Virus record (IMG/VR): IMGVR_UViG_3300010371_000003
Coordinates: 946-64,945 of that record
Direction: 5' to 3' (one strand)
DNA length: 64,000 bases
Origin: a virus
Taxonomy: Duplodnaviria > Caudoviricetes
Shown here: positions 1 to 16,856 of the stretch, piece by piece
Layout of the letters: each line of letters begins with the position of its first letter
Position numbering within the stretch: position 1 is the stretch's first letter
Program-made: the position numbers and the translations under genes
The notes under the pieces: model-generated
What the model saw: the letters and a program-made list of their open reading frames with translations, nothing else
What the model was told of the DNA's origin: nothing
Database searches by the model: none

Positions 1-900
1 GTCGAGACTCCTGTACCCACCTCCGTAGGCGATCGCCCGCTCCGCTGCTTTGCCCTCGAGGACCTGCTGGCCGCTCGCCTTGGCCTCCTTGGACCGGATC
101 TGCCAGAGCGCGTCCAGCTTGCCGCGGAAGCAGACGCGGTCCGTGCACATGTCGGCGCGCGCGGCGTCGGGGAACAGCTCGCGCTGCTGGCCCGTCCGCT
201 TGGGGCAGGCCGTGCAAGCGCCGGCCTTGGGCACCAGCGTCGCGCTCGCGATGTCGAACGGCGCCTGATCGAGCCGCAGCAGGTAGCTTTCCTCGAGGCG
301 CCGCTTCGCCTCCTGCGCGGACATCCCCTCCCACAGGCTGTCGAGGGCCTCCGCCTGCAGGCTGGGCGGTACGCGGGCAATCAGGACCGCGACGCCCAAC
401 GAGATTTCCTCCTCGTCGAGGGCGGCGCGTGCCTCTTTGCCGAGCTCGCAGAGCTTGAGGCGCTGGGCGACGTAGGTCGGCGGCCGCCCCAGCTTGTCGG
501 CGATCTGCTGGACGGTTCGGCCGCGTTCGATCATCCGCTTGAACCCGTCGGCCTCGTCGAGCGGGTGCATGTCGTTTCGGTGCACGTTCTCGATCAGCTG
601 GGCGTCGAAGACGTCGTCGTCCGACATCTCGCGCACGATCGCGGGGATCGTCGCGCGCTTCGCCAGCACCGAGCCCGCGTGGCGGCGGTGGCCGAAGACG
701 ATCTCGAAGTCCCCAGCCTTCCCCACACTGGCGCGGACGACGATCGGCTGCAGGACGCCCTTCTCCCTGATCGACGCGACGAAGTCGTCGTCCATCTTCT
801 CGCCGCCGCGGCGGCGAGGCTGGGTCGGGGACTTGTGGCACTGGTCGACCGGAAGCAGGACAACTGTCTCGGTCGCGTTGTTCTCGACGGCGTGGTTCAT
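1..900 (-). CDS. ParB/RepB/Spo0J family protein (3' end outside window)
   Basis: Translated by hand, not in ORF track: MNHAVENN...SIREKGVLQPIVVR...EIVFGHRR...QLIENVHRNDMHPLDEA...IADKLGR...AGACTACPKRTG; SD AGAAAGGG upstream. Confidence 0.92.
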   Translation of the reverse strand, partial: MNHAVENNATETVVLLPVDQCHKSPTQPRRRGGEKMDDDFVASIREKGVLQPIVVRASVGKAGDFEIVFGHRRHAGSVLAKRATIPAIVREMSDDDVFDAQLIENVHRNDMHPLDEADGFKRMIERGRTVQQIADKLGRPPTYVAQRLKLCELGKEARAALDEEEISLGVAVLIARVPPSLQAEALDSLWEGMSAQEAKRRLEESYLLRLDQAPFDIASATLVPKAGACTACPKRTGQQRELFPDAARADMCTDRVCFRGKLDALWQIRSKEAKASGQQVLEGKAAERAIAYGGGYRSLD

Positions 901-941
901 GTTGCTGATTCCCTTTCTGGTCAGGTCAGCGCGCAGGGGCT

Positions 942-1259
942 TCAGAAGGCGCGCCCGACCTCCCAGCCGGGCTGGTCCGGGTCCGCGACCGGCACTGCGT
1001 CGCTGCACGAACTAGGCGGGATCGAAGAGCGCCGAGCCGCCTCGTTTAGCGGCGCCCCCCTTTGGGCATTTCGCGGCGCCCACGCGCCGCCGGGTCGTCC
1101 AACAGACCCGTCTCCCTGGCCAGGGAAGAGCATCATCCACACCCCGGCGACGAGCGGCGCGAGCACCAGCCCGACGGCGACGGCAACCGCGAGCACCGCG
1201 CCGACCTCCCCTTCGGCGCGGTGCCCGCGTACATGGAGACTTGCCTGAAGGCGCGTCAC
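942..1259 (-). CDS. Hypothetical membrane protein
   Basis: One hydrophobic segment; start overlaps stop of upstream gene. Confidence 0.5.
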   Translation of the reverse strand: MTRLQASLHVRGHRAEGEVGAVLAVAVAVGLVLAPLVAGVWMMLFPGQGDGSVGRPGGAWAPRNAQRGAPLNEAARRSSIPPSSCSDAVPVADPDQPGWEVGRAF

Positions 1260-1552
1260 GACAGCAACGCCTGCCCTTCATCGCCGCGCGCCAGCCACGC
1301 GGTGTTCGCCTCGCGCAGCGCCCGTTCGACCTTGATCAGGGCGTGCAGCGCCTCGAGGGTCGCGGGAGTACTGGCGGCCGGGCCGGCAAGGGCGACGCGG
1401 TAGATCTCGAGCTCTCGCTCACGAAGTCGCATCTCGTCGGTCAGCGCGCGGATGGCCGGGTCGTCGTTGTAGGCCCGGACGTGACACGCGCACAGGCTCT
1501 GCCCGAACGCCGCGTCGTGCTTGCAGTTGAGCTTGGCGCAGTTCACGGTCAC
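1256..1552 (-). CDS. Hypothetical protein
   Basis: GTGA-coupled in operon; Cys/His-rich N-terminus. Confidence 0.6.
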   Translation of the reverse strand: MTVNCAKLNCKHDAAFGQSLCACHVRAYNDDPAIRALTDEMRLRERELEIYRVALAGPAASTPATLEALHALIKVERALREANTAWLARGDEGQALLS

Positions 1553-1890
1553 GCCTCGTCCTCGGTCCTGCCCTCGTCGCTTCCGACGACCTCGCCGTCG
1601 GTCACCGGCGCGAGCCGCCGCGGCGTCATCTCGACGTCGTACGGATGCACGGGCCGCGGCCTACTCGCCCGGACCACGCCCTTGGCGGTCTCCTCCGTCG
1701 TGGGCGTGATCCGGTACAGCGACGCGCCCGCCACGAACGTCGTGAAGGGCTTCGCGTCGCAGTCGTCGAGGCCGGGGACGTCGAGCTGGAGCATCTTCGT
1801 CCCGAACTGCTCGACCTCGCGGACCTGGCCCGCCATGCGGACGTGGCCCATCAACTCAACGATCGCCCAGCCCTCGAACGCCAGAGGCAT
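1549..1890 (-). CDS. Conserved phage hypothetical protein
   Basis: WAIVELMGH..AG...FG...LDVP...SLYRITPTTEE pattern; operon coupling. Confidence 0.8.
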   Translation of the reverse strand: MPLAFEGWAIVELMGHVRMAGQVREVEQFGTKMLQLDVPGLDDCDAKPFTTFVAGASLYRITPTTEETAKGVVRASRPRPVHPYDVEMTPRRLAPVTDGEVVGSDEGRTEDEA

Positions 1891-1893
1891 GGG

Positions 1894-2367
1894 TCAGCTC
1901 ACCCGCGCGGTCGCCAGTTTCAGCTGCGACGGTTCGATCTCGACGGTCGCGAACCCGCCGACGTTGCGTCCGAACCACGCCCAGGCGGCGCCGTCGAACA
2001 GGAACTCGAACTCCAGCGCGACCGACGGCCGGCTGTCCTCGGTCTTCGCCTTCGTACCCGTCGCCTTCTTGCCGAAGCTGCGCGGCACGAACACCTTGTC
2101 GGTCCGTGGGTTGTCGGCTTTCTCGCCGGCGACCACGACGTGCAGGTCGAGCGAGGCGATCACCTCGTCGATGGGCATCACCGCCTTTTCGAGACCGCCG
2201 GTCTCGAGTGCCTGCAGGACCTTCAGCCCCTCGCCACCCAGAGCCTTCGCCAGAAGCACGTCGAACTCCCGCGTTAGCTGGACGGTCATCTTCCGGACCA
2301 TCTGGCTGTCGATCAGCTTGCTCTTGACGGCCACCTTCGTGATTTGCATCTCACACGCCAGTTGCAT
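1894..2367 (-). CDS. Hypothetical protein
   Basis: SD AAGGAG; globular composition. Confidence 0.75.
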   Translation of the reverse strand: MQLACEMQITKVAVKSKLIDSQMVRKMTVQLTREFDVLLAKALGGEGLKVLQALETGGLEKAVMPIDEVIASLDLHVVVAGEKADNPRTDKVFVPRSFGKKATGTKAKTEDSRPSVALEFEFLFDGAAWAWFGRNVGGFATVEIEPSQLKLATARVS

Positions 2368-2566
2368 CGTTCGCTCCTTGGGTCGTCGGAATCGTTGTCG
2401 GTTCGCCGAAGTGGCAGTCGACGCAGGGCAGCCCGTCGTGCGGCGGGTCCTTGTCGGCCTTCACGAGGTACTTCAGGGCCTCGCGGCGCTCCTTGTGGGG
2501 CTCGCACAGCCAGACCCACTCGGAGAAGGCGCGATCGAGCTGGTAGATGCGGACGGGTTTGCTCAT
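2351..2566 (-). CDS. Small hypothetical protein
   Basis: MSKPVRIYQL...CVDCH; ATGA overlap with initiator stop. Confidence 0.55.
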   Translation of the reverse strand: MSKPVRIYQLDRAFSEWVWLCEPHKERREALKYLVKADKDPPHDGLPCVDCHFGEPTTIPTTQGANDATGV

Positions 2567-3633
2567 CCGGCTGCCGCCTTCGGGGGGTGGCGCTCTCGCT
2601 GCAGCGTCTGGCGCATCTCCTCGAGCTGCTCGGGCGTCCACGTCTTCTCGCCGGCGGCCCGCAGCTCGGCGACCTTCCGCTCGGTGGCCGCCGCCAGTGC
2701 GTCGGTCAGCAGACCCGGGTCGCTCTGTCGCGTGCCGCTGGCCGCCCTTGCGTGCCGACACTCGGGGCAGCTGTCGTGCCCGCCGTCGCGCGGCAGCTTG
2801 CCGCGTGTACCGTGCGCGCGGTGGAACGCGCAGCGCTCGTCGGCGGCACCCCGCTTCGCCGGCACGCGAAGGCCTCCCCATTCCTGGACGAAGAACACGA
2901 ACGGGTGGCGGCGCTGTACCGTGCGCGGCTCGGTGCTCCCCAGGAACTCGGCGAACATTTGAGGCGCGCGCGCCTGCGCCTCGCGTCGCTCCCGGTCGGG
3001 GATCGGTTCCAGCACCAGGTCGAGCTCGCCGCAGGCCTTCGCGTCGCCGGCGGCGCCGTACGTGATGCGGCCGTACTTCGCGCACCAGGCCTCGCCAAAT
3101 TTCGCGCGCCAGTCCCAGGCAGACCAGATCTTGGCCTCCGGTGTGCTACGCGCGGGCGCGGGCGGGACGGGGGGATCAAGAGCGGGAGCGGGAGCGGGAG
3201 CGGGAGGAGCGACATTTGCCTGCAAACGGCGGACATGTGCATCTCGCTCAGCCCAGGCCTTGCGCGCGGCCTCCTGTCTAATCTCGCGTAATGTAAGCCC
3301 CTTTTCCTTGCGCTGGGCCTCCCGCTGCCAGCGCTTGAGGACGTAGTCCGGGGCGTGGTCCTCCAGGTCGTGGACGCGATACACATGTCCGCCGTTTGCA
3401 TCCGTTTGCACGTCAACGAACCCGGCCTGCTTCAGAGCAGCGGCGAGCTCGCCGGGCTCGCCGCGCCAATCGGCGATCACCTCCAGGGCCTCGGCGTCGC
3501 CGACCACCGGCTCCCCGGAGGCGTAGCAGGTCTCCCAGATCAGCTCGAGGACGCCACGAGCCAGGGCGCGGCCCTTCAGCCGCGCCGACAGCTTCGCGAA
3601 CTTCGGGTGCGAGCTGAGGGTCGGGCGGGCCAT
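2563..3633 (-). CDS. Putative phage replication initiator
   Basis: N-terminal HPKF..L....LW...IADWRG...AAL...GF winged-helix-like domain, Pro/Ala linker, internal inverted repeats; position in replication module. Confidence 0.7.
   Translation of the reverse strand: MARPTLSSHPKFAKLSARLKGRALARGVLELIWETCYASGEPVVGDAEALEVIADWRGEPGELAAALKQAGFVDVQTDANGGHVYRVHDLEDHAPDYVLKRWQREAQRKEKGLTLREIRQEAARKAWAERDAHVRRLQANVAPPAPAPAPALDPPVPPAPARSTPEAKIWSAWDWRAKFGEAWCAKYGRITYGAAGDAKACGELDLVLEPIPDRERREAQARAPQMFAEFLGSTEPRTVQRRHPFVFFVQEWGGLRVPAKRGAADERCAFHRAHGTRGKLPRDGGHDSCPECRHARAASGTRQSDPGLLTDALAAATERKVAELRAAGEKTWTPEQLEEMRQTLQRERHPPKAAAG
3221..3400. repeat. 19-bp perfect inverted repeat inside initiator gene; candidate replication origin
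   Basis: TGCAAACGGCGGACATGTG (3221-3239) / CACATGTCCGCCGTTTGCA (3382-3400), extra CCGTTTGCA at 3402-3410, AT-richer spacer. Confidence 0.65.
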
Positions 3634-4104
3634 CTATGACGCCGCCAGCCTTCGCAGCTTGGCGCCAAGCCGCGGGTCCGACGCGACCTCCGCATCGACC
3701 TTCCGGACGCACCACATCGCGCTCGTGTGGTCGCGGCGTCGTGTGATGGCTGCAACCTCCGGGTACGAAAGCTTGCGCACCCGGTAGAGCGCCCAGGCCG
3801 CCCAGGCCCGAGCTCGGCTGGCGGTTCGCGATCGGTCGGACCCGATGAGCTGGCCGACCTCCACGCCGGCAACGCGGGCCACGCGCTCGATGACCACCAC
3901 GTGCGTCTCGACGAGCTGACGATGGGTGCTCAGCTGCCGCCGCTGGCGTACGCGGCCATCCGCGCTGGCGCGAGCTCGCGCGCGGCCCATGCCCAGCACA
4001 ACTGCGGCCTTGACGGTCTCCAGGCACGCCCGCAAATCGCGGTCAGTTTCGGTCCAGCGCGCGAGGAAAAGCTCCTCGAGCGCGTCGAGCGATGGCGACC
4101 TCAT
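3634..4104 (-). CDS. Stand-alone DnaA C-terminal (domain IV) helix-turn-helix protein
   Basis: VARVAGV..GQLIGSDRSR..SRAR..A.W......SYPEVA....RDHTSAM...RKV. Confidence 0.85.
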   Translation of the reverse strand: MRSPSLDALEELFLARWTETDRDLRACLETVKAAVVLGMGRARARASADGRVRQRRQLSTHRQLVETHVVVIERVARVAGVEVGQLIGSDRSRTASRARAWAAWALYRVRKLSYPEVAAITRRRDHTSAMWCVRKVDAEVASDPRLGAKLRRLAAS

Positions 4105-4364
4105 GCCGCCGCCTCGTCATCGGAGACCTCGATTTCGAAGGTGATCGGGCCGGCCGTTCCCAGGCAGTCGAAGCACCTGACAAATTCCTTCGCGACCTGG
4201 GGCGCCTTGATCTCGTCGCCGCCGATGATGAACCCGTCCGGGTAAACGTCGACGACCCGACCGGGTAGGACACGCTTCATCGCCACGGCGATCGGGCACC
4301 GGCATGGGTCGCCGGCCACGCCGTCGACGATGTCGCCCGGCGTCACCTCGACGACGACCCTCAC
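4101..4364 (-). CDS. Hypothetical protein
   Basis: VRVVVEVTPGDIVDG...CRCPIAVAMKR; coupled at both ends. Confidence 0.65.
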   Translation of the reverse strand: MRVVVEVTPGDIVDGVAGDPCRCPIAVAMKRVLPGRVVDVYPDGFIIGGDEIKAPQVAKEFVRCFDCLGTAGPITFEIEVSDDEAAA

Positions 4365-4966
4365 GACTGCGCCTCGGCGTACGAGTGATAGGCGAGCAGG
4401 AATTCCCGCTCCGCGCGCTCTGGCGCCCACGGATCGATCGGCGCGTGGTCGGATGGACCGGTCTTCCATGCGGCCGTCGGGTGCATCAGGTCCCGCCGCT
4501 CGGCGATCAGGACCTCCCGGTCGGCGGCGTGCACCTCGTCGGGTAGGTGCAGCAGCTTCTCGCCCAGGCCGAGATCGAGACCGATCGTTAACGACCAGAG
4601 GTTTTCGAGCGTCTTGTAGCCGGCCAGGGCGCGCTTGAGCGGCCGGATGATGTCCTGCAGGTAGGCCTCGCTCGCGTCGTGCAGCAGGCCGACCAGCTGA
4701 TTGGGCGGCGTGCAGAGGCGCGAGACCAGGACGCTGTGCTGGGCGACCGAGTACATGCCCCGGCAAGCACCGGCGAACCTGCACTGCAGCGACAGGTGGT
4801 GGGCGATGTCGCGGATGTCGACGTCGCCGACCTGCGGATCCTGGGGCCAGAACTTGCGGCCGGTGAAGGTGACGCCCCAGTCGCCGATCCGCTTGTCGTC
4901 CGGGAGGGGACAGGGGCGGCCCTCGCGCTGGTGCGCGGTGGCGAGAGCGAACTCGGGGAACGTCAC
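4361..4966 (-). CDS. HD-domain phosphohydrolase (YfbR/YfdR-like deoxynucleotidase)
   Basis: DIAHHLSLQCRFAG...YSVAQHSVLVS...LLHDASEAYLQDIIRPLK. Confidence 0.9.
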   Translation of the reverse strand: MTFPEFALATAHQREGRPCPLPDDKRIGDWGVTFTGRKFWPQDPQVGDVDIRDIAHHLSLQCRFAGACRGMYSVAQHSVLVSRLCTPPNQLVGLLHDASEAYLQDIIRPLKRALAGYKTLENLWSLTIGLDLGLGEKLLHLPDEVHAADREVLIAERRDLMHPTAAWKTGPSDHAPIDPWAPERAEREFLLAYHSYAEAQS

Positions 4967-5320
4967 AGCCGCGACCCCGCTGGCGGCTCAGCGCAGACGC
5001 ACGCCGCGCCGAGGTCCCGCCCGTCAGCCGCGACGCGGTGCTCGAACCACCCGTCGACCACCAGCGGCGAGCACATCGCCCGGCAGGCGGCCATCTGGGC
5101 GGCGGCCGGCGGGATGGCAGCGGGGGTGGCCGCTGGGCGCGGCTTGCAGCTCAGGATCCCGGCGATCGCCAGGAGGCAGGCGGCGGCGATTCCGGCGCGC
5201 CCGCGGGCCTCGCCAGGACGACCATGCTGCACCGCCCCTTTTCGCTCACCGGATGGGGTAAGCGGGGCGCTTGTTCTCGGGTTTCGTGCCTCGGTAGCGT
5301 CGAGCCGGGCTTGCCGTTCT

Positions 5321-5349
5321 TGGTGACCCCATCGGGAATCGAACCCGAG
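5321..5349 (-). other. attP core: 3' end of a tRNA (T-arm, acceptor strand, CCA), Glu-like
   Basis: Minus strand CTCGGGTTCGATTCCCGATGGGGTCACCA about 310 bp downstream of integrase; no canonical 5' half. Confidence 0.8.
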
Positions 5350-5425
5350 ATGATCAGGGCCAAGAGTTTGGCCAGTTTCGCCCGCTCGGCTACCGAAGGC
5401 ACCCATCGGGCCTTCGGTATCTCGC

Positions 5426-5660
5426 ATCGCCGTTCAGCCTCCTAGTGGACCGTTGCCGCTTGCATTGAAGGGAACGCACTTGTCGAGGATGCGAGCCACA
5501 CCAACGGCAAACGGCCCACCACGAGACTGAATGGCTCGATTGTGTGCCGGTAAATACATCCTCGACGAGCGCAACGATAAAGCGCGGGTTCGTGGCGCGT
5601 CAATGAAAATTCACACAACGGCGTATTGACTGTCGCCGCGACCCTTGATAGTGCCGCGCG
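5426..5660. ncRNA. Candidate structured RNA (long stem, pseudoknot, hairpin) between attP and integrase
   Basis: 5426-5462 pairs with 5502-5540; loop GTCGAGGATG 5482-5491 pairs with CATCCTCGAC 5557-5566; hairpin 5586-5604/5625-5644. Confidence 0.55.
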
Positions 5661-5661
5661 C

Positions 5662-6876
5662 CTATTGGTGTTTTAGCCGCCTGCGATCGGCGATATTTTT
5701 TTCGGGCGCTCGCTGCGGACCGCGCCGCTGCTCCTCGAGGGCGAGGCGTTCTTTCTCGCGCGCATCTTCCATCCGGTCGCGCACGACGATCGTGTCGATG
5801 TTGCTGTAGATGTCGTATCGCTCAAACGCGGTCGCTGTCGCGTGCCCGCTCATCTGCATGATGTTGCGGGTGTCCTCGCCGCGCCTGCGCGGCAGCGTGA
5901 TGAACGATCGGCGGCAGTCGTGGAGCCAGAGCGCGCCGCTGGGACCGACCATGCCCCGGCGCTCGGCCAGCGCGCGGAACCGCACGGTGAGGTGGCCGGG
6001 CTCGTAGTGGGTCCAGGTCTTCGGCGAGACGAAGACGTATGGGTTCCGGTACCGATGCGGGAATGGCAGCGTCTGCCAGTAGTCGTCGATCGCCTGCAGA
6101 GCCTCTTCGCTGAGGATCGTGGAGCGGCCCTTGCGCTCGCCCTTCTTCCCCTTCGAGATGCCGGGCGGGATCCGGACGATCCTCAGCGGCTGCCCGTCGG
6201 GCCCCGGTCGTCGGTCGATCCACGCCCGTTGCATCAGCGCCAGTTCGCGCCGGCGCATGCCGGAGCTATGCGCGACCAGCACCAGCGCGCGCTCGAATAG
6301 ATCGGCGTCAGCCAGCAGGTCCTCCAGCGTCAGCGACCCTTCCCGGTTGTCCTCGATCACGTTGAGCCGGACGTTCTCGATCGCCTCGAAGAGGTCGCCG
6401 CGCTCGTACCCGGCGAACGGATTGGCCTGCAACAGCGGCGGCTTCTGGCGGGAGGCCCACCGCGACATCCGCAAAATCAACTCGATCTCGCGGTTGCGGG
6501 TGGTGGGGGTCGTCAGCTTCTTCCGGATGGTCGTCTCGGTCTTGCGGACCTCGCGGTAGTGGCGGACCGTGTGCATCGTCGATTCGGCCACGCGCAGGTG
6601 GCCGATGATCCGCAGGACGTGCTTCGCCCTGCCCTGCACGGTCGTCCAGGACCCCAGCTTGCCGGCCTCGAACTCGGAGTAATGGGTCCAGAGCTCGGCC
6701 CAGGTCAGCGACGCGTGCGGGACCGGCGGTGCCGGCGGTGCCGGTGGCGCCGCCGCTTCACCTGGCGGGCGCGCTGCGAGCAGCGCCATCAGCTGCTTGT
6801 TCTGCTCGGCCTGCGCCCGCGCCGTCTCCACCAAGGCGGCGATCAGCGCAGCCTGCTTGTCCTCATCCTGACCCAT
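5662..6876 (-). CDS. int: Tyrosine integrase
   Basis: SGMRRRE (R), KG (K), LHDCRRSFIT (HxxR), SGH (H), FERY (Y); start placed at MGQDEDK. Confidence 0.95.
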   Translation of the reverse strand: MGQDEDKQAALIAALVETARAQAEQNKQLMALLAARPPGEAAAPPAPPAPPVPHASLTWAELWTHYSEFEAGKLGSWTTVQGRAKHVLRIIGHLRVAESTMHTVRHYREVRKTETTIRKKLTTPTTRNREIELILRMSRWASRQKPPLLQANPFAGYERGDLFEAIENVRLNVIEDNREGSLTLEDLLADADLFERALVLVAHSSGMRRRELALMQRAWIDRRPGPDGQPLRIVRIPPGISKGKKGERKGRSTILSEEALQAIDDYWQTLPFPHRYRNPYVFVSPKTWTHYEPGHLTVRFRALAERRGMVGPSGALWLHDCRRSFITLPRRRGEDTRNIMQMSGHATATAFERYDIYSNIDTIVVRDRMEDAREKERLALEEQRRGPQRAPEKNIADRRRLKHQ

Positions 6877-6966
6877 CACCCGAAGCAAACGACGCAACAC
6901 GGGGCTGCCAGAGTATTGACCCCGTGCGCGGCCTGGAAGGTGGTTTTTGCGGCTCCATTGGACGTA

Positions 6967-7013
6967 GAGGTTTCGAAACCTCGGTCCGATCGCGGTTTCG
7001 TAACTGAAACCGC
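6967..7013. promoter_or_regulatory. Two GGTTTC/GAAACC palindromes upstream of integrase
   Basis: GAGGTTTCGAAACCTC (6967-6982) and GCGGTTTCGTAACTGAAACCGC (6992-7013). Confidence 0.5.
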
Positions 7014-7015
7014 CC

Positions 7016-7240
7016 TCAGCGTTTGCGCGCCCTCTTTTTGCTGACGGGGTCCGGCTCGTCAGGCGGCTCGATCTGTCCCCACTGGCCATGCGGCATGTCG
7101 CTGAACCGCTCCCACGCCCGCCCGCGCGAGTCGACGCCGACGATGCGAGTCCTCACCGCCACGCCGGGCGCGCCCGCCACTGCATTCGGCGGTACGACGT
7201 GGGTTGCGAGATGGATGAACTGGACCTTCTTTCTGAGCAT
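7016..7240 (-). CDS. Small hypothetical protein
   Basis: ORF divergent from RHH gene, upstream of int. Confidence 0.55.
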   Translation of the reverse strand: MLRKKVQFIHLATHVVPPNAVAGAPGVAVRTRIVGVDSRGRAWERFSDMPHGQWGQIEPPDEPDPVSKKRARKR

Positions 7241-7267
7241 GGCGTGTATGTCCTGTGTTCAACAAAC

Positions 7268-7287
7268 GTACACCGGTAGTACACCGG
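7268..7287. promoter_or_regulatory. Tandem GTACACCGG repeat in divergent intergenic region (candidate RHH operator)
   Basis: GTACACCGG at 7268-7276 and 7279-7287, 11-bp period. Confidence 0.5.
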
Positions 7288-7336
7288 CGGATAACCAAAT
7301 TTTGCCGACCCGTGACCGGATGGTAAGCGTCGCGGC

Positions 7337-7519
7337 ATGGCCACAAAGGCGAAGCCCACGAAGAGCAGGGGCCAGCGGAAGCACCGCGGCGTCAGGTTCT
7401 CGGATGCCGAGTGGGCGGAGCTCGAGGCCGCCGCAGAACGGCACGTTATGCCGTCGGCGTCAGCGTTCATCCGGCAGTCGTCGCTGCGCGCGGCGCGGGG
7501 TGAGACGGAGAAGCGCTGA
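7337..7519 (+). CDS. Ribbon-helix-helix DNA-binding protein
   Basis: RGVRFSDAEWAELEAAAERH..SASAFIRQ. Confidence 0.8.
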   Translation: MATKAKPTKSRGQRKHRGVRFSDAEWAELEAAAERHVMPSASAFIRQSSLRAARGETEKR

Positions 7520-7747
7520 AGTCTTCGAGCTAGGATCCACAGGAGGGGCCGGCGAGGTTCCAATGCGGTTGTCGGCGGACACCGCCCAGAAGTTGCTGAC
7601 GGGGCCCCTCCTTCCCCGTCGTGGCTGTCCGGCCGCCCCTGGTAGGTGTCGCTGCAATGCGGATGGTCACTCACCGTTTTTCGCCAGCTTTGCAGGCGGA
7701 AACCTGCTCGCATCCGTTGTGTTGCTGAGGTGGCATCCCCTCGCGGG

Positions 7748-9547
7748 TCAGTCCCCGATGGCCTGCGACAGCGGCGATCCCATGCGGTCGGGCGCGTTCT
7801 CGAAATGGCCATCCCGCATCGCGTCCAGTCCGCGAACTTCCAGCTGACGGACGCGCTCGCGCGTGATGTTCAGGATCGCGCCGGTTTCTTCGAGCGTGAT
7901 CCCGCCGCGATCGGCCACGTCCAGCGAGCAGGTCTCGGCCAGCTGGTCGACCTCGAGGTGCGGGAAGTTCAGCTTGAGCGCACCGCTCTCTGGGTTGACC
8001 TCCAGATACAGGTGGTGCGAGCACGAGACAAAAGGACACGGCCGCGGCATGTCGGCGCAGTCGCCGCGCGTGCGCGGTCGTTGGACGTCGGCGGGATAGT
8101 CCAGCTCGGCGCCCGCGACGCGCTCGGAGCGCGACAGGCGCGCGGCGCTGATGGTCTTCGAGCGGATGCGGCCGTCGATGACCGTCAGCTTCGCGCGTAC
8201 GCGCTCCACTGCGGGCGTGGCGGGCGTTTCGTCGGGCAGCTGCGGCTCCGGGGCCTCTGGCTGCCGCAAGATGGCCAGCAGCGGGTCCGGCGCGTTCCGG
8301 TAGGCCGGCGGCGGCTCCCGGTCCTGGTCCGTGATCGGATTGCCCTCGGCCGCCCGTTCCGCCTCCCACCGCAACAGGCGCTTGACCTTCTGGCGCGCGC
8401 CATTCACGCGCCCGCTGATGACGTTCGGCGTGACGTCCTCGGTCCAGGCCATCGTCTGAAAGCTGAGGCCCTCGAGCGCGACGCCCTCGTATGCACGACG
8501 GATTTCCGGCGCCAGCCAGCCCAGGACCCAGTCCGGCGGCCGCTGGTCGGCGCCAGGCGACTGCGGTGCGTCCGCGATCGCGAAGCATGCCTGGCAGGTC
8601 ACATCGGCCCGGCCGGTGACCAGCTGCAGCCCGGCCTGGAAGCGCAGCGTGCACGCCGGCGTGCCGCCGCTCTCTGGCGACCAGAGGTGCACCAACGCCG
8701 CGTCGGCTTCAGGCGGCGGCGGGACGTCGGTGAAATCCGCGTCCGGATCCGAACGGTCCCATCCCGTGGGGTCGTTCACCGGAACCTCGTCGCCATTCCG
8801 CGCCGGCGACGGCTCGATCACCGCCGTAGTGGGCCCGTCGTTCGCGGGCGCGACGTAGCCGACCCCATCCGCGCCGAGCAGCTCCCAGTCGACCCTGGGC
8901 CCCTTGACCTCCTTCGGCGGGCGGCGATTGAGCAGATCCCTCGCGATGCGAGGTGCCGCCGGGTGCAGGTCGGCGAATGCCGCGGCGACCGCCGCCGGCT
9001 CACCCTCGTCGTCGGACGCCGGCGTCTCGCCCGGCTTGCCCTTCGCGCGCGCCTCGCGCAGCGCGCTGCGCCCCCGCATGACGTCGTTCATGACGTCTTT
9101 GTTCGTGATCCCCAGCTTGTCGCCGATGACCTGCGGGGACATCCCGGAGGCGCGCATCTCTACGCTCTTTCGCTTTCGGCCGTCGATCGCGCCGATCCAC
9201 GGCAGCAGGGCCGTCAGCTCGGCGGCCACCGGGTCGCCACGACGCACGCCCTTCGACTCCGGCGGCTTCGCTTCCGCTGCAGCAGCAGGTCGACCGGCGA
9301 TCGCGCGCGCCCGCGGCGTCTCGGCTGTCGTGACCGGCTCGGTCGGCGCCAGGGCGGCCACCGCCAGCTCGCCCACCGACCCGAGTTCCGCCAGCGCCTG
9401 GTCGCACGCGGCGACTTCGGCGAGCGCGCGCTCACGCCGCGCCCGAAGCTCGGCCTTGATCGCCTCGGTGCGTTCGCGCATGGCCCGCAGCTCGGCGAAC
9501 ACGTCCAGGGCGCGAGAGGTTGTCGCGGTCGATCGTCCTCGTGGCAT
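7748..9547 (-). CDS. Multi-domain sigma-70 region 4-like protein with myxobacterial-type Cys/His module
   Basis: C-terminal RPRTRGDC...[16 protein letters not shown]...[33 protein letters not shown]; two further HTH-like segments; SD AAGGGAG before MPRGRST. Confidence 0.8.
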
Positions 9548-9744
9548 CGTCGCTCCCTTCGTTCTCATCACGCTGTTGGGGGCAGATCTGTGTCGGAGGT
9601 CTTGGACGGCGCGCACGGCAGCACCTTGTGCGGCGGCGCCGGCGCTCGCCGCGCGGGTTTGCGCCGCGCTCGGACGGGTCCGCGTCGTTTCGCCATGACG
9701 ACGATGGTGCGGACCGCCGGAGCGACGCCCAAGTTTCGGGGGCC

Positions 9745-10275
9745 TCATCCACCGCCGCCGATCTCTTTCAGGGTCGCCTCGAACGCCCGCCAGGCCTTCC
9801 AGGCCTGCTCGACCTCGGCGGGCGTTCCCACCCAGCCCGCGCCACACGCGGCGCAGAACAGGGTCGCGTTTTCGGGTCCACTCCAGCGTCCGGGCTCGAC
9901 ACCGCAGTCCGCCACCGCGGGCGTGGCGATCGGCGTCTTGCATTCGGGGCAGGCCGGGCAGTCCAGCGGCGTGGGAACCTGAGCCGCCTTGCGCGGGATG
10001 CGGCGCCGGCCCCGCTCGTAGTCCATCAGCGGGTCGTGTACAAACCGGCCGTCGCCGTCCTTCAGACGCACCCAGTAGCGGCCATTCGACGGCCTCCAGT
10101 CCATCGTGTTGTCCAGCTCGATCAGGCACGCGACGAACCGCCGCTGCCACTCGGGCGGCATCGACTGCAGCACGCTGCGCGGGATAGTGAGGTACTGCGC
10201 ATAAGACAACTCGAACCAGCCGTGGATCGGCTCGGGGTCGAGGTTCTCGGGCTTGATGTCGCGATCCTTGCTCAT
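9745..10275 (-). CDS. Conserved phage hypothetical protein with C-terminal Zn-finger-like motif
   Basis: [31 protein letters not shown]; CPEC...CAAC. Confidence 0.75.
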
Positions 10276-10484
10276 ACCGGCCTGACCTCCAGCAGCGGGC
10301 ACGCAGGGCCGCAAGGTCGCAGGTCGCCGGGGCTGAAGATGACGCCCCAGCCGTCGCACACGTCGCAGGTCTCGCTGTCCCAGTCGCATGCCGGGCACTC
10401 GCGCGTCGTCAAGCCGTGCGCCTCCTGGGCATGCGCCAGCCGGGCGAGCTGCTGGGTCTCGGTGCCGATGCCTTCGTCGCTCAT
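10272..10484 (-). CDS. Small Cys-rich hypothetical protein
   Basis: CPAC, CDVC, CGPAC; coupled. Confidence 0.6.
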
Positions 10485-10681
10485 CGAGGCGTCCCACCTT
10501 CCTTGGGTTTCTTCAGGTTCCTCAGCGCCAGAGCGGCGCCCAGCTCCGTTGCGACACGCTCGATGATCGGGTGGGCAAGCTCCGGCTTGTCGACCTCGAG
10601 CAGCCTGGCAGCCAGGCGCAGCTTGTCGGGCGCCGGCAGCGCGTCGATCTTCGCCTTGAGGGCGAGCAGCTCTGCGTTCAC
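10481..10681 (-). CDS. Small hypothetical protein
   Basis: VNAELLALKAK...; coupled. Confidence 0.6.
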   Translation of the reverse strand: MNAELLALKAKIDALPAPDKLRLAARLLEVDKPELAHPIIERVATELGAALALRNLKKPKEGGTPR

Positions 10682-10914
10682 GGTCGCCACTCGGGTTGGG
10701 GAACCAGCCTCTCGCCCGTATTCACGTCGATCGCGACCATGGGCGAGCCGCACGAGCGGCACTCGATTTCCTGTTCGACCACCGCGCCGACGAGCGGGCC
10801 GTCGCAGACTCGTTCACCGATGCAGCAGCATTCGTCACCGCTCGTCGAGCACGCGCACGTATAGTTGCCCTCGGTGTCGCAGATCCAATTCGCCACTGCG
10901 GCGGCGCTCATCAT
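10678..10914 (-). CDS. Small Cys-rich hypothetical protein
   Basis: Coupled at both ends. Confidence 0.55.
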   Translation of the reverse strand: MMSAAAVANWICDTEGNYTCACSTSGDECCCIGERVCDGPLVGAVVEQEIECRSCGSPMVAIDVNTGERLVPQPEWRP

Positions 10915-11258
10915 GTTGACCTCGGCGGTTCAGCGCTGGCCCCCGTGAACGGCTTCCCGTCGAAGTCGAAGACGGGCGTCTTGCTGCCGCTGTCGCGCTG
11001 AACAAACACCGGCCCCGCGAATAGCCCGTACGCCGCCCAGTCGCACCCGACGCCTCGGATGTGCCGGCCGATGCATTCGGATTCCACGGAGTACTTGCCC
11101 GCCCGGAGCTGCTCGAGCGACTCGGCGTGCTCGGTCCGGGCCTTCTCCATCGACTCGACGTTGCCGCAGCGCGGGCACACGAACCGCCAGTTGGTTTGCT
11201 CGCGCGCGAACAGCTCGGCGCCCTTGGCCCACCAGTCCGCCTCGGAGATCGCCGCCAT
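10911..11258 (-). CDS. VVA0879-like phage protein
   Basis: WRFVCPRCG...CIGR...GCDWAAYGLF. Confidence 0.75.
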   Translation of the reverse strand: MAAISEADWWAKGAELFAREQTNWRFVCPRCGNVESMEKARTEHAESLEQLRAGKYSVESECIGRHIRGVGCDWAAYGLFAGPVFVQRDSGSKTPVFDFDGKPFTGASAEPPRST

Positions 11259-12922
11259 TACGCCACCAGCCTCAAGCTCTCGACCGCCCGGAACCCGCCG
11301 GTCGTCTTCTCGATCAGCCCGCAGCCGGACAGCTGACCCCAGTAGGTGCGCGCGGTCCCGCCGGCGGGGTCGAGCCCGATCTGCTTCAGCGCGTCCGCCT
11401 TCGGGATCGGTCGCGACCCGTTCGCGGCGAGGAACTCCAGCAGGTCCTTCGCCTTGCCCTGGAAGCGATCGCGCCAGACGGCCAGCAGCTCGGCCGGCGA
11501 CTTGGGCCGCTCGACCGGCCCGGCCGCGCGCAGCCCCTCGGCCGTGATGCGCAGGAAGTCGCCGTCCTTGACCACCAGGCCGGCGCCGGTCAGCTTGCCC
11601 CGGTAGGTGCGATAGGTGCCCCCCTTCCGGGACATGCCGGCCAGCACCGCGACCTGCTGCTCGGTCAGCGGCGTTGGGTGGCGGGCGGCCAGGGCGCGCA
11701 GCATGCGCATGGCGCCGTCGCCCGTGTCGTTGGCGGCGGGCTGGTGGTGCACGCCGTTGGTCGGCTGCGCGACCGGGTGCGCGGGCCAGCGGCCGGCCTG
11801 GGCCGCCTCGACGAGCTGGCCGTGGTGGCCGTCCGACATCAGGACGCCCATCTGCACCAGGTCGCGCAGGTGCGCGGTCAGGTCGCCGGCCTCCTTTTCG
11901 ACGACGCGCAGCTTTTCGACCACCTCGCGGGGGAAGACCTGGACCCGCTCGGGCGGGCGCGCCCGGAGCTCGGCCAGCTCCCGCTCGAGCGCGGCGTGCT
12001 TGGCGTCAGGCTTGCCGGCGTGGCGCGCCGCCTTGCCGGCCTCGTCCTCGGCTTCCACCACCTCGGCCATCGCGGCGCGGATCGCCGCCAGGTCGATCTT
12101 CGGGAGCGTGGCGGCCGCCGTCGGGTCGCCCGCCTCGGGGGTCTTGCTGCTGTCGAAGGTCCGCTTGGGGTTGGCCCGGATCCTGACGGCGCCGTGGTCG
12201 CCCCATGCCAGCATAGTGCCCCGCGGCAGGGTCGGCAGCTCCGCCAGAACGCGGTCGTCGGCGTCCTGGTCGCGCGCCCAGCCCTCGATCGCCTTCCGGT
12301 CCTGCGGGCCTTTGAGCTTGCCCGCGAACATGTACGTGCTCAGGTTGAGCGCGGATTTGCTCATCTCGGCGATCCGCTGCGAGATCAGCATCCCCCCGAT
12401 GCCGAAGTTCCGGCCGATCTTCCAGAGCCGCTTGACGACGCCGACCATCTCGGCGGCGCCGGCGTCCACCTGCTGGGGCAGGAACTCGTGAGCCTCTTCG
12501 AGGACGAGGTGAATCGGCGAACGGTTGCGCTTCTTCGCCTCGAAAAGCTCGCGCGCGAACGCCACGACGAACCGGCGCTGCTGGCTCATCGTGAACTCGG
12601 AGATGTCGAGCACGGCCGACATGCGCCGCTCCGCCGCCAGCCGGGCGACGAGCTCGCCCGCCCCCGGCTCCAGCGGGATGTCCCCGTGGATGCCGCCGAA
12701 GACCGGGATGTCGAGCCCCTTGCCCTTGCCGTCCGCCGCGAGCCGTAGCCCCCACCAGGTCGACACGGGGTCGATGACGACGACCTGGGCGCCGCCGTCG
12801 ACGAACGTCTCGACGATCTTGCCGGCCAGGTAGGTCTTGCCGCTGCCCCGCGTCCCGACCGCGGCGATGGTGTCGGCGACGGCGCCGGCGGGTAGCGTGA
12901 AGTTGTCGGCGATCTTGAACAT
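11258..12922 (-). CDS. HerA/DUF87-like P-loop ATPase with C-terminal winged-helix-like region
   Basis: GTRGSGKT, VVIDP, LVLEEAHEF, GRNFGIG...ISQR. Confidence 0.85.
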   Translation of the reverse strand: MFKIADNFTLPAGAVADTIAAVGTRGSGKTYLAGKIVETFVDGGAQVVVIDPVSTWWGLRLAADGKGKGLDIPVFGGIHGDIPLEPGAGELVARLAAERRMSAVLDISEFTMSQQRRFVVAFARELFEAKKRNRSPIHLVLEEAHEFLPQQVDAGAAEMVGVVKRLWKIGRNFGIGGMLISQRIAEMSKSALNLSTYMFAGKLKGPQDRKAIEGWARDQDADDRVLAELPTLPRGTMLAWGDHGAVRIRANPKRTFDSSKTPEAGDPTAAATLPKIDLAAIRAAMAEVVEAEDEAGKAARHAGKPDAKHAALERELAELRARPPERVQVFPREVVEKLRVVEKEAGDLTAHLRDLVQMGVLMSDGHHGQLVEAAQAGRWPAHPVAQPTNGVHHQPAANDTGDGAMRMLRALAARHPTPLTEQQVAVLAGMSRKGGTYRTYRGKLTGAGLVVKDGDFLRITAEGLRAAGPVERPKSPAELLAVWRDRFQGKAKDLLEFLAANGSRPIPKADALKQIGLDPAGGTARTYWGQLSGCGLIEKTTGGFRAVESLRLVA

Positions 12923-14454
12923 CAGGCCGCCGCCTTCCCGGCCGGCGCCAGCGCCTCGACCACCAGCTCGCCGCGCGACACCCGGGTGCCGATCAGCTGG
13001 AACCCGTCCGCCGTGGCGACCTCGACGAACTGCTCGAGCGCGTCAGCGTCGAGCCGTTCGAGACCGTCAACGATCAGGATGCCCGCCCCGGCGTTCAGCC
13101 TCTTGCAGAGGTCGACGCTGAACCGCATCTGCTCGGCCCCCGACAACGAGTCGAGCGAGACGCCGTCGAGCGTGATGATGTCGCCCGTGACGGCGAGCCC
13201 CGGGATCAGCGCCGACCGCTTGGCGAGATCCTGGGGCGCCTCGGTGGCGAGCCGGCGCACGATCGCGTCGATCTCGGCGGCGTCCGCCTCGCGCTTGGTG
13301 GCCACGGATTCGAGGCGCGCGTGCTCGGCGGCGGCTTCCGTAGCGGCCTGGGCGGCCTTGGCGTCCTCCAGGGCGGCGACACTGGCGTCCAGCGCCTGGT
13401 GAGCGGCGGCGAACTCCTCAGGCGGGACGCCCATCGCGTCGACGTCGGCGAGGCTGGCGCGCAACTCGGCGGCGCGGGCGTCCTCCTGCTCGGCGCACTG
13501 GCGCGCGTGCTCGGCAGACGCCTTGCCGGCTTCCAGGGTAGTCAGCGTCGCCTGCGCCTTGCTCTCCACCGCGCGGGCGCCCGCGAGGGCGATCTCAAGA
13601 CGCCGGACCTCTTCGGTGGCGTCCTGGTAGACCCCTCGGGCGACCGCCAGCGCATCGTCGGACGGCCCATATCCAGCCTGCCGATGGAGGGCCTTCGCGC
13701 GCTGCTCGACCTGCTCGATCAGGGCCCGCGTCCGCTCGGCCCCCTTCTTCGCCTCGGCCGCGGCCATCTCCCGCGCCCTGAGTTCCATCAGGCGCCGGCC
13801 GGCCTCGGTGTTGGCCTTGGCCGCGTCCTCGATGCTGGGCGCGCCCTCGGGCCCGGGCGGGTAGTTCCCGGCCGCGTTGGCCTCGGCGCGCGCGTCCTTC
13901 GCCGCCTTGTTGACGTCCTTCCGCACGTCGTAGAACAGCTGGTGCAGCCGCTCCAGCACCTCCAAGCCGTGCCCCTCCAGGGACACGCGTTGCAGCAGCT
14001 TCGTCGCTCCCGGGCACCAGCGGGCGACGTCCTCGGCGGTCACCACCACCGGCAGCGCCTCCAGCACCATCCGGCGCCGCTCCTTGGGGTCGGCCAGGAA
14101 GAACGACAGGGCGTCGAGCGCGGCCGTCCCGAACAGCTCGTTCAGGCGGGTCTGCGGCTTCGACCAGTTGTCGCCCTCCTGGTTCTTGACCGTCAGGCTG
14201 CCCCCCTTGGCGGTGATCGAGCGGCGCACCTTGATCGCGTCGAGGTCGACCAGGATCTCGGCCTGGTCGGCGCCCAGCCGGATCGCGTCGGGCCCGATGC
14301 CCTGGCCCGCCAGCGCGGCCGAGATGGCCTTGAGGACGGACGACTTGCCCCGCGCGTTGCCGCCGCTGATGACGGCCCCCTCACGCGGCACGTCGATCGC
14401 CAGCTCCCGGATACCCCGGAACGACTTGATTTCGAGTCTCGTGATCTTCGGCAT
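12922..14454 (-). CDS. SMC/SbcC-like coiled-coil ABC ATPase
   Basis: GGNARGKSS Walker A, long coiled coil, LSGAEQ signature, ILIVDGLE Walker B. Confidence 0.9.
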   Translation of the reverse strand: MPKITRLEIKSFRGIRELAIDVPREGAVISGGNARGKSSVLKAISAALAGQGIGPDAIRLGADQAEILVDLDAIKVRRSITAKGGSLTVKNQEGDNWSKPQTRLNELFGTAALDALSFFLADPKERRRMVLEALPVVVTAEDVARWCPGATKLLQRVSLEGHGLEVLERLHQLFYDVRKDVNKAAKDARAEANAAGNYPPGPEGAPSIEDAAKANTEAGRRLMELRAREMAAAEAKKGAERTRALIEQVEQRAKALHRQAGYGPSDDALAVARGVYQDATEEVRRLEIALAGARAVESKAQATLTTLEAGKASAEHARQCAEQEDARAAELRASLADVDAMGVPPEEFAAAHQALDASVAALEDAKAAQAATEAAAEHARLESVATKREADAAEIDAIVRRLATEAPQDLAKRSALIPGLAVTGDIITLDGVSLDSLSGAEQMRFSVDLCKRLNAGAGILIVDGLERLDADALEQFVEVATADGFQLIGTRVSRGELVVEALAPAGKAAA

Positions 14455-14457
14455 CGG

Positions 14458-15627
14458 TCAGCCCTCCCCGCGCGGCGCGGCCGCGCTCCCGTTGGTCTTG
14501 GCTTTGGCGGCCTCGGCCGCCGCGATCTCCTCCGGCGTCGGCTCGTCGCCGCGGTCGTCGGCCGGCGGCTCGTCGTCGTCGGTGGGCGGCGTGCTCACGG
14601 CAAACGCGGCAGCGACCGAAAGCTCCTTTGCCTTCACGCGATTCACTAGCTGCGAAAGCGTCTCGTGGTCGCGCGTGTCGATGTGGTCGACGCTGGCCTT
14701 GCCGAGCTTCGCCAGAACCTGCTCGACCGGCACGCCGCGCTTCGTCGTCCAGTCCAGCCAGGCCTTCGTGATCTGCGCGATCTTCTCGTTGACGGCGATA
14801 GTCGGTGCGTCGCCGCCGACCGCCCACCGGGCCATCTTCTCGCCCATCTCCTCGTCGAGCTGCGCTCGGGCGCCGAACATGTCCTTGAACTGGCGCGGCA
14901 GCTTGATCACGTCCATTTCACCCCGAAGGTTCGAGGTCCATGTCGGAACGCCCTCCGCCCCGTTGTAGAGCAGGATGTTCGTCGTCATCTCGAACCGCAG
15001 TTCGGGGTCGGCGATCGGCTGCAAGCCGAGCTTTTCCGCCTCCTTTGCGCCGCGCTCGATCTTCAGCTTGTCCTTCGCGCGGAAGCACACGATCAGGTTC
15101 AGGGCGAGGTCAGGCCGGCCGAGGCCCGTGGTCACCGCGTTGATAAACTGTCGCAGTTGCGCCTTCGGCTTCGCCCACGCGGCGAAGTTGTTCTTGAGGT
15201 CGCCACCCATCCGCTGCAGCTCTGCCTCGTGCATCTCCAAGATGCCGCCGGGGCCGTCGTGCATGTGGCTGCCGCTGTCGAGCACGATCGTCCGCGCGCC
15301 CTTGGCCACCACGTGCTCGAGCACGTCGAGATAGTCGAGCGGCGAGAACGGCGGCCCGAACGGGATATGACGGAAGTCGAACGTCCCGCGCGCTGGGTCC
15401 GCCTTCTGGCCCGGATTCGGCGCGTAGTGCTTCATCCGGTTCGCTTCGGTGTCGACCCCCGCGATGTCGCCTCCGACGACGCGCTGGATGCCGGTCGCGA
15501 GCCGGAGCGCCGAGTAGGTCTTGCCGCCACCGGACGGGCTGTTGATGCCGATGAGCAGCGGCACGGCGGTTCGCGTCGCCGGGTTATAGTCGAACTTGCG
15601 CGGCTGCCTAGAAGGGGTGCTTCCCAT
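14458..15627 (-). CDS. Sak4-like (AAA_24) recombination ATPase
   Basis: SPSGGGKTYSALRLA, VDTE, IVLDSGSH. Confidence 0.85.
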   Translation of the reverse strand: MGSTPSRQPRKFDYNPATRTAVPLLIGINSPSGGGKTYSALRLATGIQRVVGGDIAGVDTEANRMKHYAPNPGQKADPARGTFDFRHIPFGPPFSPLDYLDVLEHVVAKGARTIVLDSGSHMHDGPGGILEMHEAELQRMGGDLKNNFAAWAKPKAQLRQFINAVTTGLGRPDLALNLIVCFRAKDKLKIERGAKEAEKLGLQPIADPELRFEMTTNILLYNGAEGVPTWTSNLRGEMDVIKLPRQFKDMFGARAQLDEEMGEKMARWAVGGDAPTIAVNEKIAQITKAWLDWTTKRGVPVEQVLAKLGKASVDHIDTRDHETLSQLVNRVKAKELSVAAAFAVSTPPTDDDEPPADDRGDEPTPEEIAAAEAAKAKTNGSAAAPRGEG

Positions 15628-16708: not shown

Positions 16709-16856
16709 TGGTCGTGTCCGTCCTCGTTGCGCAATGAAGGCAGCCACGTCTGCGGCTGCCAACGTCGGCGTTATTCGCGCGGCATTCCGCGCACTTCTGC
16801 CTGGTAGTAATCTGTGAGTAGTGCCCGCAACGATCCGCGGGCGATGTCGCCGCCCG

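Follow-up and report, generated by a model that had tools for sequence, protein, structure and literature searches.

The window analysed here comprises 64,000 of the 64,945 bases of the virus record IMGVR_UViG_3300010371_000003, which has direct terminal repeats and is rated a complete phage. We describe a predicted RNA element on its minus strand, in the region 5426–5660, between the stop codon of a tyrosine integrase gene (int, 5662–6876, minus strand) and the core of the phage attachment site (attP, 5321–5351). Every convincing gene in positions 1–17000 lies on the minus strand, so that the genes around the element are co-directional. Read in this direction, exonuclease VIII-like and SbcC-like recombination genes are followed by a frame of 800 codons, a frame of 74 codons and int. 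Beyond int come about 440 nt without coding signal, a lipoprotein-like gene, a deoxynucleoside monophosphate (dNMP) phosphatase gene, a small PHROG 19191 gene and the genes for a protein with a DnaA helix-turn-helix (DnaA-HTH) and for a replication initiator. The integrase is represented by a 404-residue form in the protein collection, the open frame reaching 7089; it matches PHROG 1 (integrase) at 5e-23 and Pfam PF00589 at 26.4 bits, below the cutoff of 27.1. The G+C content at third codon positions (GC3) does not exceed 0.67 in any frame from about 5655 to 5295, as against at least 0.9 in the flanking genes. The original prediction, made from the letters of the window alone, had described a region with no convincing open reading frame situated between integrase and attP; both statements hold.

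The 31-nt attP core, read on the minus strand, corresponds to the T arm, the 3′ acceptor strand and the CCA of a Polyangia tRNA-Glu(CTC), identity to which runs from ATCTCGGG to the CCA end (window positions 5351–5321). The tRNA-like models of Rfam touch 5325–5361 of the same strand with a sub-threshold T-arm match. A 28-mer around the core was found, with at most two mismatches, in eight of the 61 Polyangia genomes searched, and in all six loci that were fetched it forms the 3′ end of tRNA-Glu(CTC), adjoining tRNA-Gln(CTG). A single sequencing run holds the phage; it is a DNA run from a soil metagenome, possibly the source sample and hence not independent evidence. Its assembly graph breaks exactly at 5320–5351, where short pieces of high depth lie and where the summed word depth reaches 94.6, compared with 34–36 on either side. 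A core that also occurs in a host tRNA gene would produce such a break. Moreover, a 40-nt assembly piece leaves the core into non-phage sequence, and the core must therefore also occur in the sample outside the phage, presumably in the tRNA-Glu gene of the host. Next to the core, the stretch 5352–5412 (minus strand) appears, from an alignment by eye to four Polyangia tRNA-Glu genes, to be the decayed remainder of the tRNA-Glu copy (GGCCCgATGG ... AGCGG ... CTCT). This remainder suggests that the phage captured an entire tRNA gene, from which its attP region derives.

On the minus strand, the minimum-energy fold of the region contains a long, interrupted hairpin in which 5433–5465 pairs with 5498–5531, with an additional GCC/GGC pairing of 5429–5431 with 5535–5537. 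Its 5′ arm (5498–5537) includes the stretch TTCAGTCTC, complementary to a Shine–Dalgarno (SD) sequence, and its 3′ arm (5429–5465) carries that sequence, AGGAGG (5443–5438), together with a TGA (5436–5434). The apical region between the arms (5466–5497) contains the segment a′, CATCCTCGACA (5491–5481), with CCTCGACAA displayed in a 9-nt loop closed by CGCAT/GTGCG. The 107-nt hairpin alone has a folding energy of −60.9 kcal/mol, compared with −36.8 ± 3.8 for 100 dinucleotide shuffles (z −6.3), and the interrupted stem proposed originally is thus present, within a few bases of its first description. Folding of the whole 246-nt region gives z −3.10 on the minus strand, where none of 200 shuffles does as well, and z −2.08 on the plus strand, where five of the 200 do.

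The loop of this hairpin finds a partner outside it. An inverted-repeat search pairs 5476–5491 with 5557–5572 over 16 nt at 88 per cent complementarity, around a perfect core of CATCCTCGAC and GTCGAGGATG (5481–5491/5557–5567), which bears out the 16-nt loop pairing noticed earlier. The upstream partner, the 5′ segment a (CGTCGAGGATG, 5557–5567, minus strand), precedes the 5′ arm. When the 45 nt upstream were hybridized with the apical third by RNAduplex, the energy was −33.5 kcal/mol, a value reached by none of 300 shuffles.

Two further hairpins flank this arrangement. One, GC-rich, follows the int stop (5586–5644, minus strand; 5586–5604 pairing with 5625–5644) and appears in both folds, its 3′ arm carrying the −35-like hexamer TTGACG. 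It had been included in the original prediction and it does exist. In the alignment with L007, the closest relative that can be aligned, a 46-nt gap takes its place; the hairpin is thus lineage-specific and not a conserved part of the element, and it may be an int terminator lacking a U-tract. The other is a 10-bp hairpin (5391–5419, minus strand) that begins 6 nt past the ATG described below and consists of a perfectly complementary inverted repeat, TACCGAAGGC/GCCTTCGGTA; the former 5′ end of the apparent tRNA-Glu remainder now forms its loop.

The protein collection contains 40 relatives of the integrase (the entry of the window itself is P0002), one of them in a record named Polyangia. DNA was covered for 12 related loci; about 28 further integrase relatives are represented by proteins only, including an 81 per cent and a 76 per cent relative on contigs of 67 and 54 kb. 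Two loci that end before the int stop (L005 and L006) and one that occupies the same contig range as L002 (L013) were left out, as was L004, in which the 520 nt after int look coding. The comparison therefore includes eight loci and the window, nine sequences that fall into three groups by what follows int. Group A consists of the window, L007 (integrase identity 62 per cent, column identity of the interval 73 per cent) and L003, from a Polyangia metagenome-assembled genome, in which the tRNA piece resembles, by eye, the 3′ part of the initiator tRNA-Met. In group B (L008 and L009), int is followed by tRNA-Pro(CGG) sequence from the anticodon arm to the 3′ end, in forward orientation, and in group C (L002, L010, L011 and L012) by the 5′ half of tRNA-Pro(CGG), reversed. 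Groups B and C use the same anticodon arm in opposite orientations relative to int, and phages of group C would have to supply the 5′ half of tRNA-Pro, presumably with its promoter, after integration.

Despite these different tRNA pieces, the intervals have one order in common in the int sense: a T-rich stretch with a TTGNNN hexamer, a 5′ segment of 7–16 nt, a long imperfect hairpin of 91–113 nt whose apical region is complementary to the 5′ segment, an SD sequence and ATG, and the tRNA piece. The element is conserved in every relative with an intact 3′ end of int except L004. A covariance model of group A matches neither groups B or C nor any second copy in the window, from which it follows that the groups share an architecture and not a sequence. 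Against 151 Polyangia genomes the same model gave two matches. One is the genome of L003; the other we rejected as false, since it lies inside a coding frame with no tRNA nearby. The element is a new and rare structured RNA, represented by three sequences of its own kind and six more that are analogous.

Comparing the int–attP intervals of related phages was the check suggested by the original prediction, and it revealed compensatory changes in both helices, that of the long stem and that of the loop with the 5′ segment. All hairpins fold better than their shuffles, with z from −3.9 to −8.2 in the eight relatives. The group A stem has 26 pairs, of which eight are changed on both sides, and 94.7 per cent of its cells are paired; when the partners are slid by one to three columns only 34–56 per cent are, and none of 500 shuffles reached the observed scores. 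In group C (four loci), seven of the 32 stem pairs are compensated and 95.2 per cent of cells are paired, while in group B, a two-sequence alignment, 4 of 25 predicted pairs are compensated. These covariation sets are small and their members related, and the shuffle counts should not be read as probabilities. The existence of a conserved fold is well supported.

The strand of the fold, left ambiguous at first, could be assigned by its wobble pairs. For each sequence, the 5′ arm was aligned with the reverse complement of the 3′ arm, under a scoring that treats all mismatches alike. Among the transition mismatches in the nine sequences, those that make G·U on the int-sense strand occur 44 times and those that make A·C, which would be G·U on the other strand, 10 times. 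The ratio is 12:3, 15:2 and 17:5 by group, with an overall binomial p of 3e-6 for rows that are non-independent. The sense hairpin is also the more stable one in eight of the nine sequences, L003 being the exception. Wobble pairs confined to one strand point to a single-stranded fold of that strand, most simply RNA, and on this comparative evidence the fold appears to belong to an RNA of the int-sense strand, the minus strand of the window. Together with the compensatory changes in both helices and the lack of a repeated motif of at least 7 nt, this excess favours RNA structure over DNA operators, as had been predicted.

The term pseudoknotted, applied to the element initially, describes one half of the observations. 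The loop does pair with a strand outside the hairpin, and in group C it does so with covariation: the helix has 15 pairs and one bulge, four pairs are compensated and 96.5 per cent of cells are paired. L010 and L011 combine GCCAACCC with GGGTTGGC, whereas L012 and L002 combine GCCACCGA with TCGGTGGC. The group A core, GTCGAGG/CCTCGAC, is invariant. The duplex energy, which no shuffle reached in the window, was reached by 0 of 300 shuffles in L012, 2 in L002, 7 in L011, 12 in L010 and 18 in L007. For group B, a pairing of 7 bp with three swapped pairs (GGGCGCT/GGCGCCC versus GCCGGCT/GGCCGGC) can be drawn by eye, although GC-rich near-palindromes of this kind are weak evidence.

The other half, the coexistence of both helices, is contradicted by geometry in group C. 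There the 5′ segment ends five columns before the foot of the 32-pair stem, and its partner takes 15 of the 21 columns of the apical loop. A linker of 5 nt faces a stem of some 90 angstrom, and 15 pairs would have to form within a closed loop of 21 nt, so on geometric grounds the two helices must be alternatives; a pseudoknot with the full hairpin would be sterically impossible in this group. In the window the linker has 19 nt and a strained knot is conceivable. A third pairing interleaves with these two: the CGUCG of the 5′ segment is complementary to the CGAUG of the start-codon region in all three members of group A, and in the window this helix extends to 15 pairs (5563–5579 with 5418–5432). 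Enforcing the loop pairing as a nested alternative costs 8–20 kcal/mol relative to the rod formed by the closed hairpin and leaves the SD region largely open. According to these models, the element is more likely to be bistable, with two alternative folds, than to form one fixed pseudoknot.

The loop sequence was also compared with other parts of the window. Its 11-mer has 15 matches at no more than one mismatch, against 3.6 expected; the motif is presumably made of frequent codons. As to the idea of a guide RNA, which was set aside, inspection by eye for complementarity between loop and att core yielded one 9-nt match, 5533–5541 with 5337–5345.

All nine sequences have an SD sequence, a spacer and an ATG at the 3′ foot of the hairpin, the ATG of the window being at 5425–5427 (minus strand). 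The frame that starts there is the longest of the three in 9/9 sequences, runs through the tRNA-derived core and enters a gene of normal codon bias (high GC3) in all but L003, where other DNA follows. In the window it has 154 codons (4963–5427, minus strand), with a GC3 of 0.53 over codons 1–70 and of 0.91 thereafter, and continues into the lipoprotein-like gene; its stop overlaps the next start (4963–4966), and groups B and C show the same overlap by eye. The SD is paired in the consensus of group A (3/3) and in the minimum-energy folds of group B (2/2). Group A further shares a second stable hairpin, of unrelated sequence, 4–8 nt past the ATG. Since the start site and the operon that it serves lie on opposite sides of the core, they are joined only in the circular genome. 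We assume that the attP-crossing frame is translated, under constraint by its att and RNA roles.

A promoter-like site, TTGACG (5603–5598) and TATCGT (5579–5574) with 18 nt between them, occupies 5574–5603 of the minus strand and ends 6 nt before the 5′ segment. It has 9 of 12 matches to a sigma-70-like site, one such site being found as against 0.2 expected. By eye, the TTGNNN hexamer is in register in the relatives, and L007 has TTTACG, 18 nt and TAGATT in register. In all three members of group A, a frame of 36–43 codons (5434–5559 in the window) begins at an AUG or GUG that lies within or next to the 5′ segment, passes through the whole hairpin and ends at a TGA 7–9 nt before the main ATG. 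This upstream frame could be a coupling frame or a product of chance in GC-rich DNA. We did not retain it as a coupling element: in the window all three frames are open across the hairpin, and the other groups are inconsistent.

On these grounds we propose, with a probability of roughly 45 per cent, a cis-acting leader RNA with two states that controls whether translation can proceed across the attP joint. The attP-crossing frame is opened by the SD and ATG within and beside the 3′ arm; for this reason the element is best understood as a leader of the downstream sequence and not as an appendage of int. The leader would start near 5567 on the minus strand, transcribed from a promoter just downstream of int or by read-through from int. 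In its stable state, the hairpin of about 100 nt (5429–5537) would bury the SD (5443–5438), while its short closing helix and the second hairpin (5391–5419) would flank the ATG (5427–5425). With the SD buried and the ATG between helices, translation of the attP-crossing frame would be blocked, and with it that of the coupled lipoprotein-like gene and the genes of the dNMP phosphatase, the DnaA-HTH protein and the replication initiator. Alternatively, the 5′ segment (5557–5567) could pair with the apical loop (5481–5491), a helix that would form first during transcription; it would compete with the closed rod, or possibly knot with it in the group of the window, and the start site would open. 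Leader and operon being on opposite sides of the att core, such control would act only on the excised or incoming circular genome, the leader pointing into host DNA after integration. A more far-reaching version, which we regard as distinctly unlikely, would place the element in a new riboregulator class. The RNA would be bistable, and a specific signal (integrase, excisionase, an RNase or a small molecule could serve) would shift the equilibrium between the loop-to-5′-segment fold and the closed rod, so that the replication and partition genes beyond attP would be on only after excision and re-circularization.

Several observations weigh against a two-state leader. The loop helix is barely tested in group A, where 7 of its 10 pairs are invariant and one is compensated, and the loop duplex is no better than shuffles in L003 (122 of 300 reach it), L008 (150 of 300) and L009 (140 of 300). 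Burial of the SD is not universal, since the SD of all four members of group C lies outside the stem, at least 13 columns to its 3′ side. Codons 1–70 of the attP-crossing frame show a GC3 (0.53) resembling that of non-coding DNA, and the peptide that they encode is not conserved. A promoter scan of L010, L007 and L008 gave no sites, and only the window passes. The comparison as a whole is small, with nine sequences in three groups and L010 and L011 nearly identical, and a transcription-linked C-to-T mutation bias could produce part of the G·U excess without selection. Finally, the one run that holds the phage is DNA; transcript, promoter, folding order, trigger and effect on translation are all inferred.

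The same features can be read as belonging to int. An element in its 3′ untranslated region, either a site of RNase III-type processing or stability or a terminator without a U-tract, would set the amount of integrase mRNA and separate it from the downstream message, in the manner of sib/tI in phage lambda. The position directly downstream of int on the int-sense strand suits this explanation, as do an imperfect duplex of 30–40 bp, a size that RNase III cuts, the conservation in all relatives with an intact int 3′ end except L004 and the weakness, outside the window, of the promoter needed for an independent transcript. We nevertheless hold it to be unlikely, for it leaves the conserved SD and ATG in the 3′ arm and the covarying loop partner unexplained, no U-tract follows the stem and no terminator-like site was detected in 5429–5537. 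In addition, since the hairpin lies between int and the core, it remains linked to int after integration, and the uncoupling that sib-type retroregulation demands cannot take place; the lambda-type retroregulation of int offered as an option in the original prediction is hence disfavoured. The element might also act in trans, as a small phage RNA released by processing and comparable to the immunity or antisense RNAs P4 CI and P1 c4; its loop would then pair with the 5′ segment carried by different transcripts, such as those from a superinfecting or an excised copy. Such a function would fit the display of the loop in a 9-nt apical loop, the complement upstream in the same transcription unit and the covariation of loop complementarity in group C, and the downstream tRNA-like piece could recruit tRNA-processing enzymes. 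Its target, on the other hand, has a single copy in the unit and there is no match to the C4 family of Rfam or to any other family, and we consider it improbable.

About equally little can be said for an architecture of the P arm of attP at the level of DNA, in which the inverted repeats would be sites for the arm domains of integrase, for excisionase or for a bending protein, with the RNA fold as a by-product. The distance is right, 80–250 bp from the core, and the hexamer GCCGTT/AACGGC, of which the att region of the window (436 bp) has five copies, one of them in the P′ arm, lends weak support (P ~0.04 for the maximum count). This hexamer is not enriched in L007 or L003, however, and no 7- or 8-mer occurs three or more times in the window, L007 or L003, a search by which degenerate sites would be missed. 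The stems keep their pairing while their sequence changes, the mismatches are strand-asymmetric (44 to 10), and a three-way interleaved complementarity would be meaningless in duplex DNA. There is, lastly, the idea of a new class of riboswitch sensing a ligand or factor, or of a self-cleaving ribozyme. A pair of conserved, alternative helices is characteristic of an expression platform, and Rfam 15, whose families cover tRNA, tmRNA, C4 antisense RNA, known ribozymes and phage motifs, gave no match at the gathering score in the whole window or in the eight related loci, in agreement with the initial impression of an unrecognized family. At E values up to 10, the interval 5100–5900 returned sub-threshold matches only, to the T arm of tRNA-like models and to mir-8489 (23 bits against a threshold of 99). 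Yet the helices are long and simple, without a multi-stem junction, and no conserved unpaired core common to the three groups was seen, the group A model missing B and C. We see hardly any chance for this explanation, and for the ribozyme option in particular nothing speaks in the window or the eight relatives.

Temperate phages need different gene expression as a free circle and as a prophage, and the known solutions are promoters or protein ends split by attP. The sib/tI region of phage lambda, a long imperfect hairpin downstream of int and beyond attP, is cut from int by integration. The present element is likewise a long imperfect hairpin in int sense, downstream of int and next to attP, and its meaning too depends on a transcript that holds both halves. 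Unlike sib, it lies between int and the core and so stays with int; it further contains the ribosome-binding site used by the following frame, and its loop has a covarying partner on the 5′ side. In SD-sequestering leaders and the expression platforms of riboswitches, the SD is held in a conserved helix and an upstream segment is able to form an alternative one. Groups A and B of our element similarly have the SD paired in a conserved helix, and the helices show compensatory changes (8/26 in group A and, for group C, 7/32); differences are the lack of an aptamer-like junction, the unusual length of the stems (26–32 pairs) and the position of the SD outside the stem in group C. The CI RNA of P4 and the c4 antisense RNA of P1 and P7 are hairpins encoded in phage leaders, with a loop complementary to sequence within their own transcription unit. 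This arrangement recurs here; however, there is no similarity in sequence or model and only one copy of the target, and nothing positive indicates processing.

Comparable cases have been reported in which integration changes expression at the att joint. In ICEKp1, a state-dependent promoter and stem-loops in the 5′ untranslated region control int at the att joint with a tRNA gene (PMC13023037). There, as is proposed here, expression across the joined ends depends on whether the DNA is excised or integrated, and stem-loops of the mRNA beside an att site in a tRNA gene modulate the transcript. In ICEKp1, int is the regulated gene and the stem-loops are an attenuating terminator (PMC13023037), whereas here int lies upstream, the genes that would be regulated lie beyond attP and the structure covers the SD and ATG. 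In mycobacteriophage BPs, attP is inside a gene and immunity depends on integration (PMC4557955), and in Mx8, a phage of Myxococcota, attP is inside intP and integration changes the product (PMC6070905). In these phages and in ours an open frame crosses the attP core, so that integration changes, or in ours would change, what is made. Integration in BPs and Mx8 exchanges the 3′ terminus of a protein that is well defined (repressor or integrase). In our phage it would cut off the 5′ end with start codon and leader, and neither codon bias nor conservation of the peptide is seen in the N-terminal part. A literature search of limited scope found no description of a conserved RNA fold between int and attP.

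If our interpretation is correct, a conserved RNA fold at the joint adds a layer of RNA to the logic by which free circle and prophage are distinguished; the ribosome-binding site that it contains belongs to a frame present in the circular genome alone. Should the bistable riboregulator prove right, it would be a sensor of the integration state at the RNA level, common to a clade of Myxococcota phages that target different tRNA genes. The phages concerned are uncultivated phages of Polyangia, a group without an experimental model, and they contribute a candidate for a new RNA family in which two covarying helices apparently compete.

Further relatives were sought more widely. INPHARED phages gave no match by nucleotide sequence or integrase protein. 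Protein scans of viral_contigs (with P0001, profile A1, P0003 and P0006) recovered one true relative, L002; two weak matches of 53 residues were not used. The pattern CGTCGAGG..CCTCGACA..CGATG occurs at no fewer than 118 loci of viral_contigs, and none of the 118 listed has an integrase relative or nucleotide similarity. A loose pattern, found in 333 of 401 Polyangia genomes, was dismissed as noise from common codons. When the integrase profile was run against 401 Myxococcota genomes, with four candidates scored per genome, one genome was positive, the source of L003.

L003 itself presents some peculiarities. An AT-rich stretch follows its tRNA-fMet-like piece at about 1290–1480, and then an open frame that, as we presume, resembles the N-terminus of an IS701-type transposase. 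Instead of a free attP, the locus may therefore represent a prophage junction or a site that has been rearranged. In L009, ARAGORN calls an 86-nt tRNA-Trp(CCA) at 998–1083, the Rfam tRNA model remaining below threshold in this locus; the call probably stitches the 3′ half of tRNA-Pro to leader sequence.

Among the neighbouring genes of the window, the 800-codon frame upstream of int (7748–10150, minus strand) has a match to sigma-70 region 4 (PF04545, 1.6e-9) near its C-terminus; it may encode a phage sigma factor or consist of several genes miscalled as one. The gene behind attP (4963–5235, minus strand) has a signal-peptide-like stretch, a lipobox-like ILSC, where L007 has LMGC, and a Cys-rich tail. 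By eye, a normal lipoprotein precursor could result from a start at an internal GTG near 5232. After integration, this gene would directly follow the restored host tRNA-Glu gene.

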